Assembly (NCBI GenBank): GCA_049512075.1
Contig: JBEKXL010000007.1
Span: forward strand, 39,751 to 103,750
Source: Candidatus Bathyarchaeia archaeon
GTDB lineage: Archaea; Thermoproteota; Bathyarchaeia; Bathyarchaeales; Bathycorpusculaceae
DNA: 64,000 bases
Direction of reading: 5' to 3'
Each line of letters begins with the position of its first letter. Within the stretch, counting starts at the first letter, position 1. This document shows positions 2,929 through 62,762 of this stretch, in pieces. A model generated the notes under the pieces. That model saw only the letters and a program-made list of their open reading frames with translations, had not been told where the DNA came from and did not search any database. Both the position numbers and the translations under genes were made by a program.

Positions 2929-3260
2929 AACCTCATCAACCTTAACTGGGAATAGAAGCGTTACGCATTCTAAAGCGTTGTCCTTTTGTCTGCACCTGAA
3001 GGACGTATACTCGATTCGTATACTACCCCCTATATCCTGTTCTAACTGTATTCCTGCCTCTGTTCTCTACTGCCAAGTTTACTATTCCCTGAAACGAGTA
3101 TACGTCCTGTCCTAGACCGTTTCCACTAGGGTTTGGTTTGGATAAAACTTTACCCTAAATTAGGCTAAGTCTGACTTAAATGGTGAGTCCAGATGATTTT
3201 GCGAGCAAATGCTTTTACTTTTAAACTTGAATGCTGTCTATTGTTAAGGTGGCGTTTGAA

Positions 3261-3467
3261 TTGGTTAAGTGGGAGTATAAGGTGATTCCGATAAAGACGC
3301 AGGTTCATTCAGATCATTTCGAAGTCGACAAAAGGCCAGTGATAGACGATGTTCAAAATGACCTGAACGCCCTAGGCAATGAAGGATGGGAACTGGTCGG
3401 CATCCAAGACATCAGCCTGCCAGACGGCAGAATGTTCACTGTCGCCTACCTCAAGAGACAAAGCTAA
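3261..3467 (+). CDS. DUF4177-family small protein
   Basis: KWEYKV...LNALGNEGWELVGI...YLKR signature; likely TTG start at 3261. Confidence 0.8.
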   Translation: MVKWEYKVIPIKTQVHSDHFEVDKRPVIDDVQNDLNALGNEGWELVGIQDISLPDGRMFTVAYLKRQS

Positions 3468-3595
3468 CGCGTATAAAGGCGCATATAGCTTATGGGCGCG
3501 CGTGCTAAGAAACTTGACAAAGCGTTTCAACAATGAATTACGTGAGGCATGGACAGTAAGTGATTTGGGTCAAGGGTCTATGTGTGGTGATAAGT

Positions 3596-3664
3596 TTGGA
3601 GGAGGAAAATTGGCAAGAAGAAAACTGGGACGACTCAGAGGACGAAGACAATTTTGAGGACTAA
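3596..3664 (+). CDS. Putative acidic micropeptide (22 aa)
   Basis: GGTGAT SD then TTG-MEEENWQEENWDDSEDEDNFED*. Confidence 0.4.
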   Translation: MEEENWQEENWDDSEDEDNFED

Positions 3665-3760
3665 CTCACGCGCCTCATCGACCTGACAAAGAGAGAGAGA
3701 AAGCGTAAAGTTTTATCCAAACCAACCAAGAATTTGTCAGCAAATACTCATGCTTTTAGC

Positions 3761-4064
3761 GCGCGCTGGCCTGTCCCGAAATTGGTCTAAAATGGTTCTA
3801 ATTCTTCTTTTGCCTTTTTATGCTCAATTTGAGCTTGTTTGACAGGTAGATCTTGGCCGTTTTGAGGGGTGGTGAATAATGGGAGCTTCGCAGATCCTGC
3901 GGGAAGTGGGGTTTTCCCATAACACGTGGAGGCTGCACTTGGCCCGCTTGGAACGTCAAGGCATGATCGTGAAAGCTAACAGCGCATGCGCCTCAAAACT
4001 GCCCCCAAACCCCAAAAAAGGAATAAACACCGTTTTTAACCATTTTAGGGACAAGCCAGCGCGC
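3761..4064 (+). mobile_element. MITE-like element copy 1 with ~44-bp imperfect TIRs carrying a degenerate winged-helix ORF
   Basis: 3761-3804 matches the reverse complement of 4021-4064 at 35/44 positions. Internal LSLFDR*ILAVLRGGE / ILREVGFSHNTWRLHLARLERQGMIVK / KKE*. Homologous to 62543-62762. Confidence 0.7.
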
Positions 4065-4131
4065 TACTTGGTTCTCGCTCTAACAAGACTGAATCAAGGC
4101 CATCCTGAGCGTCCGTTTGAAGAGTTGGATT

Positions 4132-5250
4132 CTATAGTGCTAGATTGAGCAGTTCGGCAACGTCCATGATTTGGATTTTGCCCTCTGCCCCTGTGGTCTT
4201 GACAGCATCTTCGAATGTTAATAGACAGTACGGGCAGGCTGTAGCGAGGATGTCTGCTCCAGCTTCAACAGCGTCTTTCACGCGGGTTTCCGCTAAGCGT
4301 GGACCCGGAATGTCAACCCACATCCTTCCTCCGCCTCCTTCGCAGCAGACGCTTCGGGCTCGGGAACGGTCGAACTCCAACAGTTTGACGCCTGGCACGC
4401 TTTCGATGACTTTTCTCGGTTCTTCGTAGATGCCATTTTGTTTGCCCAAGAAGCACGGGTCGTGATAGATGACTTTCTTGTTCACTTCCTTCGATAAGGT
4501 GAGCTTTTTCTCGTTAATCAGTTTGGCAAGCAGTTGCGTGTGGTGTTGGATCTCGAAGCTTGTCTGGTTGTACCTGTTCTTGAACGCGTGATAACCGTGT
4601 GGACAGCTTGTCACTCCTTGCTTTACGTTGTATTTGTTGAAGGTTTTCATGTTCTCTTCAACTAGGAAGTCGAACAGGCCTTTTTCTCCCATGCCGTAGA
4701 CTTCGCTTCCGCAGCAGTTTTCTTCGTCGCCTAGGACACCGAAGTTCAATCCGGCGTTTGCAAGGACACACGCTAAGCTCCTAGCGACACTTTGGACTCG
4801 CGGATCATAAGCCGGGGTACAACCGACAAAGTATAGAATGTCTGCACCCTGAGACATGTGTTTAAGGTTCAGGCCTTGAGCCCATTCTGACCTTTTGTTG
4901 CGGATTCTTCCCCATGGGTTGCCGTTCTTGAATATGCTTTCTAACGCGTCTCGGATTGTCGGTGCGATTTGTCCTTCCTCAACCGCCATGCCGCGAACGT
5001 CAATCAAAAACTCGTATGGGTTCAAATCCTTTGGACAACGGACGCCGCATGCACTGCAGGTTGTGCAGCTCCACAGCTCATTCTGCGAATGCTGTGTCAG
5101 CTTGCCCATTGTGGCAACTTCTCGCATGTACTTCCTAACGTTTAAGTTGGCTTTACGCGCAACTGGGCAGCTTCCCGTGCATGTTCCGCACTGGATGCAT
5201 TCGAGGAGCTTATGTTTCTGAGTGAGCTCTTGAGCGTTCATATTGTCCAT
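4132..5250 (-). CDS. HdrD/FadF-like Fe-S oxidoreductase (2x[4Fe-4S] plus two CCG domains, soluble)
   Basis: CIQCGTCTGSCP, CTTCSACGVRCP, GNPWG, YFVGC, ENCCG, YHDPC, CCEGGGG, TACPYC. Likely start at 5250 or 5241. Confidence 0.88.
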   Translation of the reverse strand: MDNMNAQELTQKHKLLECIQCGTCTGSCPVARKANLNVRKYMREVATMGKLTQHSQNELWSCTTCSACGVRCPKDLNPYEFLIDVRGMAVEEGQIAPTIRDALESIFKNGNPWGRIRNKRSEWAQGLNLKHMSQGADILYFVGCTPAYDPRVQSVARSLACVLANAGLNFGVLGDEENCCGSEVYGMGEKGLFDFLVEENMKTFNKYNVKQGVTSCPHGYHAFKNRYNQTSFEIQHHTQLLAKLINEKKLTLSKEVNKKVIYHDPCFLGKQNGIYEEPRKVIESVPGVKLLEFDRSRARSVCCEGGGGRMWVDIPGPRLAETRVKDAVEAGADILATACPYCLLTFEDAVKTTGAEGKIQIMDVAELLNLAL

Positions 5251-5338
5251 CACTTTTAGTTGAATGGGGAGCATAAGATTATTAAAGCGTTTTCCCGTGA
5301 ATTGTTTGAAACATATCCTGGAAAAGGAGATTTCACCG

Positions 5339-7705
5339 ATGGAGAAGAAATCGCCCAAGATAGGCGTTTTCGTCTGTGAATGCGGCGGCAACATAGGGGA
5401 AGTTGTGGATGTCAAGGCAGTTGTTGACACTGTCAAGACATGGGACGGTGTTGCCGTAGCCAAATATCACAAGTATTTATGCTCAAAACCGGCTCAAGAA
5501 ATGATTCTTGACGCCGTGAAAAAGGAAAATCTAGACCGGGTTGTGGTTGCAAGCTGCACGCCTCGTATGCATCTTGCCACTTTTCAGAGTGTTTTGGAAC
5601 GAGCTGGTCTAAACCAGTTTATGCTTGAATTCGTGAACATAAGGGAGCAAGACTCATGGATATTGGGACCGCATCCTTCGCCGGAAGCGACGAAGAAAGC
5701 TATCAGTCTAATAAGAGGTGGTTACGAGAGAAGTCGCGAGCTTGAGCCGCTGCAGCTCATAAGCGAGAAGGGCTCCAGAGAGATACTCATTATCGGCGGA
5801 GGCATCTCAGGTATAACTTCTGCCCTTGAGCTTGGATATTTGGGTTACAAGGTTGACCTTGTTGAAAGAAAGTCCAGTATCGGCGGCAACATGGCCAAAC
5901 TGACCAAGGTTTTTCCCACTTTGGATTGTGCACAGTGCATTTTAACGCCAAGGATGGCGGAAGTGGGCAGAAACACAAACGTTAACCTATACACCTACGC
6001 TGAAGTGCAAGAGGTCAGCGGAAGACCGGGCAACTACGATGTAAAAATACGCATGAAGCCGAGAGGCGTTGACGTTCAGAAGTGCAGAAGCTGCGGTGTC
6101 TGCGCGAAAGTTTGTCCGGTAACGGTTTCAGACGAGTTTAACGAGGGTTGGTCGCAACGGAAAGCAGCCTACATCGAGTTTCCACAAGCCGTGCCCTCAG
6201 CCTACACCATTGACTTCAGCGCGTGCACAAAGTGCGGAAAATGTGAGCAGCTTTGTCCAGCCAAGGCCATAAGCTTGGCAGATCCGGGAAGCACAGTCGA
6301 CCTGCACGTTGGTGGCATAATAGTGGCCACTGGCTATCAGCTCTATGACGCTAAGAAACTTGAAACCTACGGCTATGGCACATACAAAGACGTAATCACA
6401 ATGATGGACCTGGAGCGGTTCGTCTCTGCAACTGGGCCAACAGGTGGCTACATCAAGAAAGCTGACGGCACCGATGTTAAACGCATGGCAATAGTGCTCT
6501 GTGCAGGCTCACGGGACAAGAACTACATCTCGTACTGCAGTAGGATCTGCTGTATGTATTCTTTGAAGCAGGCTTTTGTGCTGAAGAAGATGCTCGGCAT
6601 AGACGTGAGCATTTACTACACTGACATCAGGGCAACGGGCAGGGGATACGAGGATCTCTATTGGCGTGACCAGGAAGCTGGTGTCACCTTTATCCGTGGC
6701 AAGGTGGCGGAGGTGTACAAGAACGCCAAGGATGGCAAGCTCGTTGCTGTTGCGGAAGATACGATAACAGGCGAGGTGACCGAAGAAGAGTTCGACATGA
6801 TTGCTTTGGCCACGCCTATGGTTCCGCCCACAGGGTTGAAGGAACTTGCTGAGAAAATGAAAGTCAGCATCAGTGAAGACGGGTTCGTCACGGAGAAGCA
6901 TCCTAAACTCGACCCTGTTGATTCGCTAGTCACTGGTATCTTCGCATGCGGCTGCGCGTTGGGTCCCAAAGACGTCAGAGACACGGTTTCGGATGGCTTG
7001 GCCGCCTCAGCTAAAGCGGCATTGTTCCTGAAGAGCGACTACGTTACGACAAGCCCCGAGAAAGCTTTCGTCATCAGCGACTTGTGCAACGGCTGCAATG
7101 CCTGTGTGCCAACCTGTCCGACAAACGCCATAAGCATGCAAGACGGGAAAGCCAAGATTGACCCGTTCCTGTGCACAGGTTGTGGCGCATGCATACCCGT
7201 CTGTCCTCAAGAAGCCATTGACTTCAAGAATGCGACGACTAAGCAGATAACTGCAAGTCTGAGAGGAGTACTGGCAGAAAAGCAACCGGGCGAAGTCAGA
7301 GTCGTCGCCTTCGTAGACAAAAACGTTGGTTACACAGGCATGGACTTCTTAGGCCTGGACCGCACAAACTATCCTGAAAACATCCGCATCGTACCCGTTC
7401 CCACCACCGCCATCCTAGGCTTGAAACATCTGCTTTACGCATTCGCATACGGAGCTGACGGTGTTCTGGTCATCGAAGGAACACAGGAAATTGATGAAAA
7501 GTTTACGAAGAAGAAAATGATCGACATGGGAAGGGAATTGGCCAGATACAATGTTGAAAGCATGAGAGTGCGCTACAGCTACGTGCCCCTCCCAGTTTAC
7601 AAGAAGGCTGCGGAGCTATTCACAATGTTCACGGATAGGATAAAGAAATTCGGACCGTTTCCAGAAGAAAAACGCTGCGAGATAAAACAGAAGCTTGGCC
7701 TGTGA
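5339..7705 (+). CDS. hdrA: Heterodisulfide reductase subunit A fused to a C-terminal MvhD/FlpD-like domain
   Basis: IGVFVCECGGNI, ASCTPRMH, GGGISG, FPTLDCAQC, CAGSRD..YCSRICCMY, GPKD, two ferredoxin inserts; C-terminal R.NYPENIRIVPV...GADGVLV. Confidence 0.92.
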   Translation: MEKKSPKIGVFVCECGGNIGEVVDVKAVVDTVKTWDGVAVAKYHKYLCSKPAQEMILDAVKKENLDRVVVASCTPRMHLATFQSVLERAGLNQFMLEFVNIREQDSWILGPHPSPEATKKAISLIRGGYERSRELEPLQLISEKGSREILIIGGGISGITSALELGYLGYKVDLVERKSSIGGNMAKLTKVFPTLDCAQCILTPRMAEVGRNTNVNLYTYAEVQEVSGRPGNYDVKIRMKPRGVDVQKCRSCGVCAKVCPVTVSDEFNEGWSQRKAAYIEFPQAVPSAYTIDFSACTKCGKCEQLCPAKAISLADPGSTVDLHVGGIIVATGYQLYDAKKLETYGYGTYKDVITMMDLERFVSATGPTGGYIKKADGTDVKRMAIVLCAGSRDKNYISYCSRICCMYSLKQAFVLKKMLGIDVSIYYTDIRATGRGYEDLYWRDQEAGVTFIRGKVAEVYKNAKDGKLVAVAEDTITGEVTEEEFDMIALATPMVPPTGLKELAEKMKVSISEDGFVTEKHPKLDPVDSLVTGIFACGCALGPKDVRDTVSDGLAASAKAALFLKSDYVTTSPEKAFVISDLCNGCNACVPTCPTNAISMQDGKAKIDPFLCTGCGACIPVCPQEAIDFKNATTKQITASLRGVLAEKQPGEVRVVAFVDKNVGYTGMDFLGLDRTNYPENIRIVPVPTTAILGLKHLLYAFAYGADGVLVIEGTQEIDEKFTKKKMIDMGRELARYNVESMRVRYSYVPLPVYKKAAELFTMFTDRIKKFGPFPEEKRCEIKQKLGL

Positions 7706-62542: not shown

Positions 62543-62762
62543 GCTCGCATGCGTGTTGCTAAGATGGTGAGAAATGGTGCTTATTCCTTTTTTAGGGGGT
62601 TTGGGTGTGGAAACTGCATTCTGCAGTGTCCGCCGGGCTCCCCTGATTTGCAATCCCTCAATACGGCAAGGATTTGCTCATCAAACAATCCCATATTAGG
62701 CCGAAATGGGCAAAAGAAGAATGAAAACCATCTTGCACCAGTTCAGGAACAGACATGCGTGC
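62543..62762 (-). mobile_element. MITE-like element copy 2 (internally deleted) with ~44-bp TIRs
   Basis: First 110 nt (minus strand) align ungapped with 3761-3870 at about 72%; ORF MGLFDEQILAVLRDCK...PNPLKKE*; own TIRs match at about 31/44. Confidence 0.7.

Follow-up and report, generated by a model that had tools for sequence, protein, structure and literature searches.

The stretch of 64,000 nucleotides analysed here (hereafter the window; C7:39751-103750 of the Candidatus Bathyarchaeia archaeon genome G000, 2.7 Mb in 86 contigs) contains two short elements bounded by inverted repeats, at positions 3761-4064 (copy 1) and 62543-62762 (copy 2). Both are dead, internally deleted copies, resembling MITEs (miniature transposable elements with inverted repeats), of a 477-482-bp cassette with a single gene for a small DNA-binding protein. 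Judging from sequence, we consider it probable (about 0.82) that the family as a whole is a mobile insertion cassette (MIC) dependent on an insertion sequence (IS), with MITE derivatives, which is most likely moved in trans and is neither invertible nor autonomous. The IS transposase would recognise outer ends common to the IS, the cassettes and the MITEs, and would move the latter two in trans by cut-and-paste, usually into TA. The comparison set consisted of 41 related genomes (G-numbers), public genome contigs and metagenome loci (L-numbers); 80 metagenome loci were analysed out of 339 relatives. The genome comes from peat and wetland populations.

Used as a DNA query, copy 1 gave 79 matches in G000. 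An nhmmer profile built from 26 element ends and run on the same genome found 115 ends, pairing into 31 elements of 151-482 bp, and 77 ends in the genome contain the inner motif described below. The first-pass annotation of this DNA had reported the element as present twice in the window; the two copies are indeed there, but this understates the family, which has more than 30 paired copies in the genome. Recurrent element sizes are 303-304 bp (the type of copy 1), 212-213 bp and 183-185 bp, with breakpoints common within each size family, and deletion derivatives whose breakpoints are fixed exist in several copies of their own. At ten contig ends the sequence breaks off 125-127 nt into identical element ends; near-identical copies therefore break the assembly, and we take these ends as a likely sign of recent activity. 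A considerable part of the short repeats, and of the contig breaks, in these genomes is due to the family.

The two longest copies in G000 (481-482 bp) are C35:464-944, which is intact, and C2:161410-161891, which is frameshifted. The cargo open reading frame (ORF) is intact in a single copy in this genome, at C35:532-906, and encodes the 124-aa protein P0001. The complete unit consists of a terminal inverted repeat (TIR) of ~52 nt, the 124-aa ORF and a second repeat holding the stop codon. Across 55 complete units, the ATG is found at position 63-69 and the stop codon most commonly ends 38 nt from the right element end (26 units). This 481-bp parent unit, with its dispersed, multi-copy family, bears out the earlier view of the window elements as relics of a mobile cassette; it holds only the 124-aa ORF, so a small winged-helix protein is its sole cargo, as had been proposed.

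In copy 1, a repeat search delimited two arms of 52 nt each (79% complementary, spacing 200 nt), which contain the inverted ends noticed originally (3761-3804 and 4021-4064, 35 of 44 positions matching). Both arms match the nhmmer end profile at E=1.4e-15, and the same profile finds 115 ends in the genome; the repeat is therefore not a product of chance. The features of the two copies are as follows (end classes are defined further below).

3757-3760, no strand: left flank of copy 1, TA (3757-3758) and then an additional GC (3759-3760), read from the sequence.
3761-3812, plus strand: left TIR of copy 1, with the outer ~24 nt forming a class-A end (GCGCGCTGGCCTGTCCC...).
3829-3978, plus strand: N-terminal winged-helix remnant of the cargo ORF, with in-frame stops and a frameshift.
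3979-3989, plus strand: internal-deletion junction of copy 1, where ~175 bp of the 481-bp unit, roughly codons 54-112, are gone.
3990-4026, plus strand: C-terminal ORF remnant of copy 1 (...APQNCPQTPKKE), with its stop codon TAA (4024-4026) within the right repeat.
4013-4064, minus strand: right TIR of copy 1 (repeat search, nhmmer).
4065-4066, no strand: right flank of copy 1, TA, read from the sequence.
62543-62762, minus strand: copy 2, a 220-bp relic (C7:102293-102512) with degenerate class-B-like ends (GCACGCATGTCTGTTCC / GCTCGCATGCGTGTTGC).
62543-62595, plus strand: arm of copy 2 on the ORF-distal side (C7:102293-102345; nhmmer E=6.7e-11).
62709-62762, minus strand: arm of copy 2 on the ORF-proximal side (C7:102512-102459; nhmmer E=2.3e-11).

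The inner part of the left repeat of copy 1 contains a doubled AAAWTGGT motif and a T-rich, TATA-like stretch. The ORF remnant begins with TTG (3829-3831) where the intact ORF has ATG, and residues 21-57 of P0001 match C7:43638-43748 at 70% identity in a tblastn-type search. As originally described, the ORF is broken and its stop codon falls inside the right arm. The deletion breakpoints recur on C31 of G000 and in 303-304-bp copies from two congeneric species, G002 and G004, and the deletion derivative has therefore multiplied in its own right. In the right arm, the outer 21 nt and the adjoining TA match the left end of an IS copy at the end of contig C40 without a difference (23/23; C7:43816-43794). 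The claim that TA flanks copy 1 on both sides holds only approximately, since on the left GC intervenes between TA and the arm; the same TAGC precedes 2 of the 36 class-A ends in G000 and is also found at loci L199 and L201.

Copy 2 had been described as a second copy on the opposite strand, and it does align with copy 1 at both ends and at the ORF start, the internal gap being longer. The region of the ORF start is retained, the internal deletion is larger than that of copy 1, and TA flanks are lacking. Copy 1 is of class A, and copy 2 of degenerate class B. Both are short (304 and 220 bp), TIR-bounded, non-coding and multi-copy, and share their ends with an IS, as MITEs do. Copy 1 lies downstream of a gene resembling HdrD (4132-5463, minus strand), with an HdrA/MvhD-like gene close by, a position that makes it intergenic. 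No Rfam family matched window positions 3000-5000.

The first-pass annotation had asked whether homologues of the ORF are routinely flanked by TIRs, and they are. In the related genomes, three of the four intact ORFs have full ends at a spacing of 478-481 bp and the fourth has inner halves only, while both ends surround the intact ORF in 5/5 cases on public genome contigs. The metagenome set contained 70 full-length ORFs, 63 of them with enough flanking sequence to judge both ends; both were present in 61 (50 with intact ORFs, 11 with stops) and one in the remaining two. Unit length is 477-482 bp in 62 of 65 measured units, and exactly 481 bp in 37. The cassette is therefore conserved as a whole unit across genera. 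It was also correctly described as transposase-less: no transposase is encoded inside the unit, and transposase sequences were found within 3 kb of it in only 2 of the 80 metagenome loci, both of them fragments. The mobilisation in trans that was proposed with it is the most likely route.

Among the 41 related genomes, 12 have a match to P0001. The distribution is patchy, and the gene is often multi-copy with broken copies (12 in G021, 6 in G004). This pattern bears on the earlier suggestion that the cassette may be invertible, and equally on a role as a regulatory segment that is immobile in some other way, for instance a regulator gene enclosed by a palindromic operator pair. Inverted repeats do enclose a regulator gene, as such a segment would require. 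However, ~50 dispersed loci in one genome, copies in both orientations with differing flanks, the patchy occurrence of multi-copy and broken forms among relatives, and the lack of an adjoining recombinase gene leave this explanation with almost no credibility.

One complete cassette with an intact ORF was found on a public contig of 1549 bp (L110) binned to a Thermodesulfovibrionales bacterium. Its ORF and the one on a Bathyarchaeota contig (L109) agree at 98% of non-synonymous sites, and the bacterial assignment is probably a binning error rather than a transfer.

A scan of G000 for the outer end motif revealed ends with differing interiors. At C39:6540-7652, the shared ends (GCGCGCTGGCTTGTCCCTAAATTA left, GCGCGCTGCCTTGTCCCTTTATTA right) bound a 1113-bp IS with one long ORF, which encodes 335 aa from a GTG start, the length of most of the 2138 database relatives of this transposase. 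The protein matches the Pfam families DDE_Tnp_1 (46.5 bits, cut-off 23; E=4.7e-12) and, at the N-terminus, DUF772 (35.6 bits, cut-off 23.1; E=9e-9). A Y-x2-R-x3-E-x6-K stretch, which we take to be the signature of IS5/IS1182-type transposases, is invariant in 22 transposase sequences. The IS could be aligned end to end (1-1113) at 82-89% in G001, G003, G004 and, twice, G021, and at 76% in a frameshifted copy on C32 of G000. By these matches the partner IS is assigned to the IS5/IS1182 superfamily. The outer 18-24 nt of the cassette repeats are the same as the ends of this 1113-bp IS, of which G000 holds one intact copy. The idea that the ends belong to no IS family is consequently not supported, and by the annotation's own reasoning, in which ends matching a known IS would point to an ordinary MITE, the element is IS-derived (a MITE or a MIC).

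Two further IS lineages, with transposases ~43-50% identical at the protein level, have distinct ends. IS-B is intact in G002 (L093:1421-2502; ends GCGCGCATGCKTGTTCC), and IS-C is represented by contig C77 and a broken copy on C15 (ends GCGCGCCAG..CGTTGC). The cassettes fall into three matching classes: IS-A (the 1113-bp IS) corresponds to class A, IS-B to class B and IS-C to class C, which includes the intact cassette. Class counts differ between sets of ends; among the 77 cassette-type ends of G000, in which the inner motif is present, 26 belong to class A, 37 to class B and 2 to class C, with 12 unclassed, while the TA-flank counts given below refer to 97 ends. ORF identity goes with end class in all but one (L144) of 58 metagenome cassettes, and the cassettes share with the corresponding IS lineages a left-right difference (G/C) at position 9 of the ends. 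This parallel split of cassettes and ISs offers a natural system for studying how non-autonomous elements track transposases.

In one metagenome locus (L128), a transposase fragment at 2640-2924, 47% identical to residues 235-329 of protein P0122, ends at the left end of a complete cassette (2933-3413), which may have been inserted into a copy of a related IS.

The cargo protein is composed of a winged helix and a C-terminal C-x7-C-x6-C-x4-C motif. In Pfam, P0001 gave sub-threshold matches to HTH_24 (18.9 bits, cut-off 21.9), HTH_5 (18.6 bits, cut-off 22) and HTH_34, and in NCBIfam to Lrs14, SufR-like and Sta1-type regulators, again below threshold. Membership of the ArsR/SmtB type is therefore not obtained at the thresholds of Pfam HTH_5 or the NCBIfam metalloregulator model NF033788 (15.9 bits, cut-off 55). 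P0001 falls in Bathyarchaeota "ArsR-type" clusters of the ESM Atlas. An AlphaFold model (mean predicted local distance difference test score, pLDDT, of 74) is confident for the winged helix at residues 1-80 (pLDDT ~90) and unconfident for the last 27 residues. A Foldseek search with this model retrieved winged helix-turn-helix regulators (TFE-alpha, YodB/HxlR, PadR, ArsR/HlyU and MarR) at E ~1e-4. In an alignment of 64 homologues, F29-S30-H31-N32-T33-L34, the presumed recognition helix, and the cysteines C97, C105, C112 and C117 are invariant or nearly so.

A word-index search grouped the relatives of P0001 into 252 clusters, nearly all of 124 aa, and a full profile search yielded 559 clusters at E<=1e-3, many of them fragments of 50-100 aa. 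The longest protein in the profile search had 219 aa, and no fused or longer cargo forms were found among the longer proteins, which is weak evidence against their existence. The cassette explains many of the fragmentary "ArsR-like" gene calls in metagenomes. The cargo ORF evolves under purifying selection: among 10 intact ORFs, the ratio of non-synonymous to synonymous divergence (dN/dS, NG86 method) was 0.077-0.43 in 37 of 45 pairs, dS being saturated in the other eight.

With an ORF that is always found inside the repeats, is under selection and has no transposase beside it, the 481-bp unit might be autonomous and the 124-aa protein a new minimal recombinase or transposase. We regard this as very improbable, given that the model comprises only a winged helix and ~45 residues with four cysteines, that Pfam, NCBIfam and the fold search revealed no catalytic domain, that the ends are those of a DDE IS, and that derivatives lacking the ORF multiply.

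The cassette repeats have two parts. The outer ~24 nt are class-dependent and match the ISs. The inner ~28 nt consist of AAAWTGGT-N2-AAAATGGT, then a T-rich box and ATTC; they do not change from class to class, occur as an exact inverted pair and have no counterpart in the ISs. In the left repeat the T-rich box precedes the ATG by ~29 nt, and in the right repeat the stop codon and a T-run come from this sequence read in the reverse direction. From this arrangement we infer that the left repeat is a putative TATA-like promoter of a leaderless mRNA and the right repeat a putative terminator. The cargo protein could then bind the inner doubled motif at both ends, repress its own promoter and possibly mark the ends for the borrowed transposase, a tentative proposal to whose binding step we give slightly less than even odds. 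A modelled complex of the transposase and the cargo protein scored 0.00 twice, and the controls were not folded, so that the result speaks neither for nor against binding.

The winged-helix gene could instead be a pure passenger of an IS-derived, trans-moved cassette: a small regulator of host genes that senses metal or redox state and is retained for an indirect benefit to host or element, with no role at the element's own ends, the long repeat serving only as promoter and terminator. Its fold is that of ordinary ArsR, PadR, HxlR or MarR-type regulators, G000 has one intact ORF as opposed to dozens of dead copies, and a MITE family lacking the inner motif (162 bp, described below) multiplied anyway. 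MICs are, moreover, defined by passenger genes unrelated to transposition in the available parts of PMC3913671. Set against this, the cargo is constant in every lineage and has co-diverged with three end classes, unlike MIC231-type cargo, which is varied as far as that source describes it; the two ends hold the inner motif as an exact inverted pair, which remains constant while the outer ends change class; and conservation within the protein is highest in the putative recognition helix. We therefore judge the passenger role to be rather unlikely, though a serious competitor.

The target site was examined in the flanks of the elements. TA precedes 48 of 97 ends, compared with a genome TA frequency of 4.3%; by class, it does so at 28/39 B, 15/36 A and 5/19 C-like ends in G000. 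TA is present on both sides of 12 of the 30 pairs in G000; the same is true of 12 of the 58 metagenome cassettes, and every one of these 12 cassettes belongs to class B. Exact flanking direct repeats were found at a width of 2 only (widths 2-9 examined). A 2-bp TA duplication thus appears likely for class B.

Searches for empty sites by synteny with four same-genus genomes gave no clean filled/empty pair, the elements being located at synteny breaks or at the edges of variable islands. Insertions in G002 at C4:156358-158660 turned out to be unrelated. Paralogous empty sites within G000 were likewise not found. Logan contigs of four runs (X2, X5, X6 and X7) over C3:1-20000 break at MITEs, with no joint that skips exactly one element.

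In the same region, a 1290-bp segment (C3:12093-13382, within L077) flanked by the direct repeat AGCGCGCGCT is skipped by an X7 contig (side 255 nt). This indel polymorphism occurs at a (GC)n motif resembling the element ends, and the segment encodes a 364-aa proline-rich protein, probably located at the surface.

Several other repeats were observed in G000. A 162-bp MITE family has six copies (C2:75232-75393, C3:164751-164912, C4:14726-14887, C8:85318-85479, C9:68961-69122 and C12:39784-39945). A degenerate cassette of a diverged lineage (C8:32260-32722; ends GCGCGCCAGCTTGTTGC) carries a broken winged-helix ORF, whose C-terminal remnant matches residues 80-122 of P0001 at 40% identity. Two further short repeat families are represented at L077 by C3:17730-17972 (~243 bp) and C3:3299-3614 (~316 bp); the ~243-bp family has many copies in G001 and G002. 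The genomes compared here abound in MITE-like repeats. MITEs are found at the edges of variable regions in several comparisons. A ~6-kb island at C1:117494-123534, absent from G002 and G003 and shorter in G004, starts with a 184-bp class-B MITE and contains a 1413-aa ORF and a 272-aa ORF, the latter presumably an integrase, judged from its sequence alone.

Two sets of contig ends, nine and 11 in number, each share a G+C-rich hairpin sequence (CCCCGGAGCAAGCTCCGGGG and CCCCGGGGCTTGCCCCGGG, respectively), for example on C1, C9, C11, C16, C18, C23 and C27-C29, and on C2, C3, C6, C8, C17, C19, C23, C25, C30 and C31. The start of C40 encodes a peptide that appears to resemble a motif of Y1 (HUH) transposases. 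These ends look like the traces of an IS200/IS605-type element of ~10 copies that breaks the assembly.

A number of observations weigh against an IS-dependent cassette moved in trans by this transposase. The transposase scores below the NCBIfam cut-offs (IS1182 86/270 bits, IS5_4 69/140, IS4_1 22/115). Only relics of IS-B are present in G000, although class-B MITEs form the largest class. Among the 41 relatives, the transposase was found in 13, both genes in eight, the cargo ORF alone in four (two by weak matches) and the transposase alone in five. G014 (98% complete) and G032 (91%) have the cassette ORF with no transposase match, and five genomes have the reverse; we make no statistical claim on gene co-occurrence because the genomes are kin. 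The 162-bp MITE family has only the outer 23 nt in common with the cassettes and lacks the inner AAAWTGGT motif; since it spread nonetheless, the motif is not needed for mobilisation, which weakens the proposed role in marking ends.

The target data add to these points. On the right, TA is missing from most full-length class-A and class-C cassettes and from most IS copies, and could therefore reflect a preferred target or belong to the end itself, not a duplication. In the sole empty-site comparison, two paralogous repeats of G000 (C48 and C36) have the sequences flanking the L112 cassette joined directly to each other, and the insertion boundary coincides, within 2 nt, with the GCGCGC ends; there is no TA duplication, the filled site is 2 nt short and the copies are 87% alike. 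No transposition event was directly seen.

Some of these observations would be explained if another enzyme moved the cassettes and MITEs and the outer ends were alike through common descent only: the two genomes with cassettes and no match to this transposase, the lack of an intact IS-B in G000 despite 37 class-B ends, and the scarcity of transposase genes close to cassettes, represented by the two fragments mentioned above. Yet trans action requires no linkage, and the cassette classes match three IS lineages down to the left-right difference at position 9. An IS630/Tc1-mariner mobiliser, considered because of the TA flanks, was rejected, as the only DDE_3 gene of G000, on contig C58, shares no ends with the family. 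Taken together, this evidence makes a different mobilising enzyme improbable. Contig C58 itself (1927 bp) has a 127-bp self-overlap, indicating a circle or a tandem, and its DDE_3 gene lies on a G+C-rich half beside an A+T-rich half; the contig is possibly a contaminant or chimeric.

We then compared the elements with known systems. The window copies resemble IS-derived MITEs, such as those of Sulfolobus (PMC10969869, as far as the available parts describe them), in being short, non-coding, multi-copy, TIR-bounded and mostly intergenic, with ends shared with an IS. Prokaryotic MITEs "often encode novel ORFs" of unknown nature or without conservation, according to the same portions of that paper (PMC10969869). 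The window copies differ from IS-derived MITEs in their parent, which is an ORF-carrying cassette with an interior unrelated to the transposase gene, and not an internally deleted IS. The partner IS, in turn, agrees with IS5/IS1182 elements in its DDE_Tnp_1 and DUF772 domains, its length of 1.1 kb and its short TIRs, and departs from them in scoring below the NCBIfam equivalog cut-offs (IS1182, IS5, IS4) and in showing no clear or consistent target duplication around the seven copies inspected.

A MIC is defined, in the parts of the sources available, as a transposase-less cassette between inverted repeats whose passenger gene has expression signals of its own; for MIC231, mobilisation in trans is provided by the IS231A transposase (PMC3913671; PMC3129680). 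The complete unit likewise has two IS-like inverted repeats and no transposase inside or, apart from the fragments noted, nearby, and, like MIC231/IS231 of Bacillus cereus, mic-qnrD and mic-qnrS2 as portrayed there, it carries a gene. Movement of these MICs in trans by the cognate IS transposase is presumed, and was shown for MIC231, according to the same parts of these sources; for the present cassette it is suggested indirectly by the agreement of three IS lineages with three end classes. Unlike these MICs, the cassette is archaeal and only 481 bp long, its repeats are about twice the length of the IS ends with a cassette-specific inner half, and its partner belongs to the IS5/IS1182 superfamily and not, as for MIC231, to the IS4 family. 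Whereas the MICs described in those parts carry varied enzymes and resistance genes, its cargo is the same small DNA-binding protein in every lineage. The element was not described in the CC-licensed PMC papers and bioRxiv texts (without supplements, and in the parts available) on MICs and MITEs in archaea and on Bathyarchaeota, or in a 2026 survey of archaeal ISs. It would add an archaeal MIC, in uncultured Bathyarchaeia, that is unusually small and has one conserved DNA-binding protein as its constant, sole cargo.

A more distant parallel is provided by the eukaryotic two-protein systems of the PIF/Harbinger group. The DDE transposase of PIF/Harbinger is related to IS5, Tourist MITEs are mobilised in trans by PIF/Harbinger, and the target site duplication of Harbinger is 3 bp, as opposed to the TA, or nothing, that flanks the cassettes. 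Given the relationship of the transposases, an accessory, end-binding role of the cargo protein is a tempting idea by analogy. The 124-aa protein would be the cassette's own end-binding factor, recognising the AAAWTGGT doublet and handing the ends to the IS5-like transposase; we consider this unlikely. In PIF/Harbinger, mobilisation needs a second, separate DNA-binding protein, ORF1, according to the available parts of PMC2836001. There, a single element encodes both proteins, ORF1 being Myb/SANT-like, whereas here the DNA-binding gene has its own mini-element, the protein is a winged helix and any role of it in transposition is conjecture. If it held, the cassette would be a parasite of an IS that brings its own DNA-recognition module, and its MITE offspring would scatter the binding sites of one regulator across the genome. 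It would represent a prokaryotic two-element counterpart of the two-protein PIF/Harbinger system, which could hint at the origin of that system, and, should the protein bind the ends of its own element, a model in which accessory DNA-binding proteins of IS5/Harbinger-type transposition could be tested directly.

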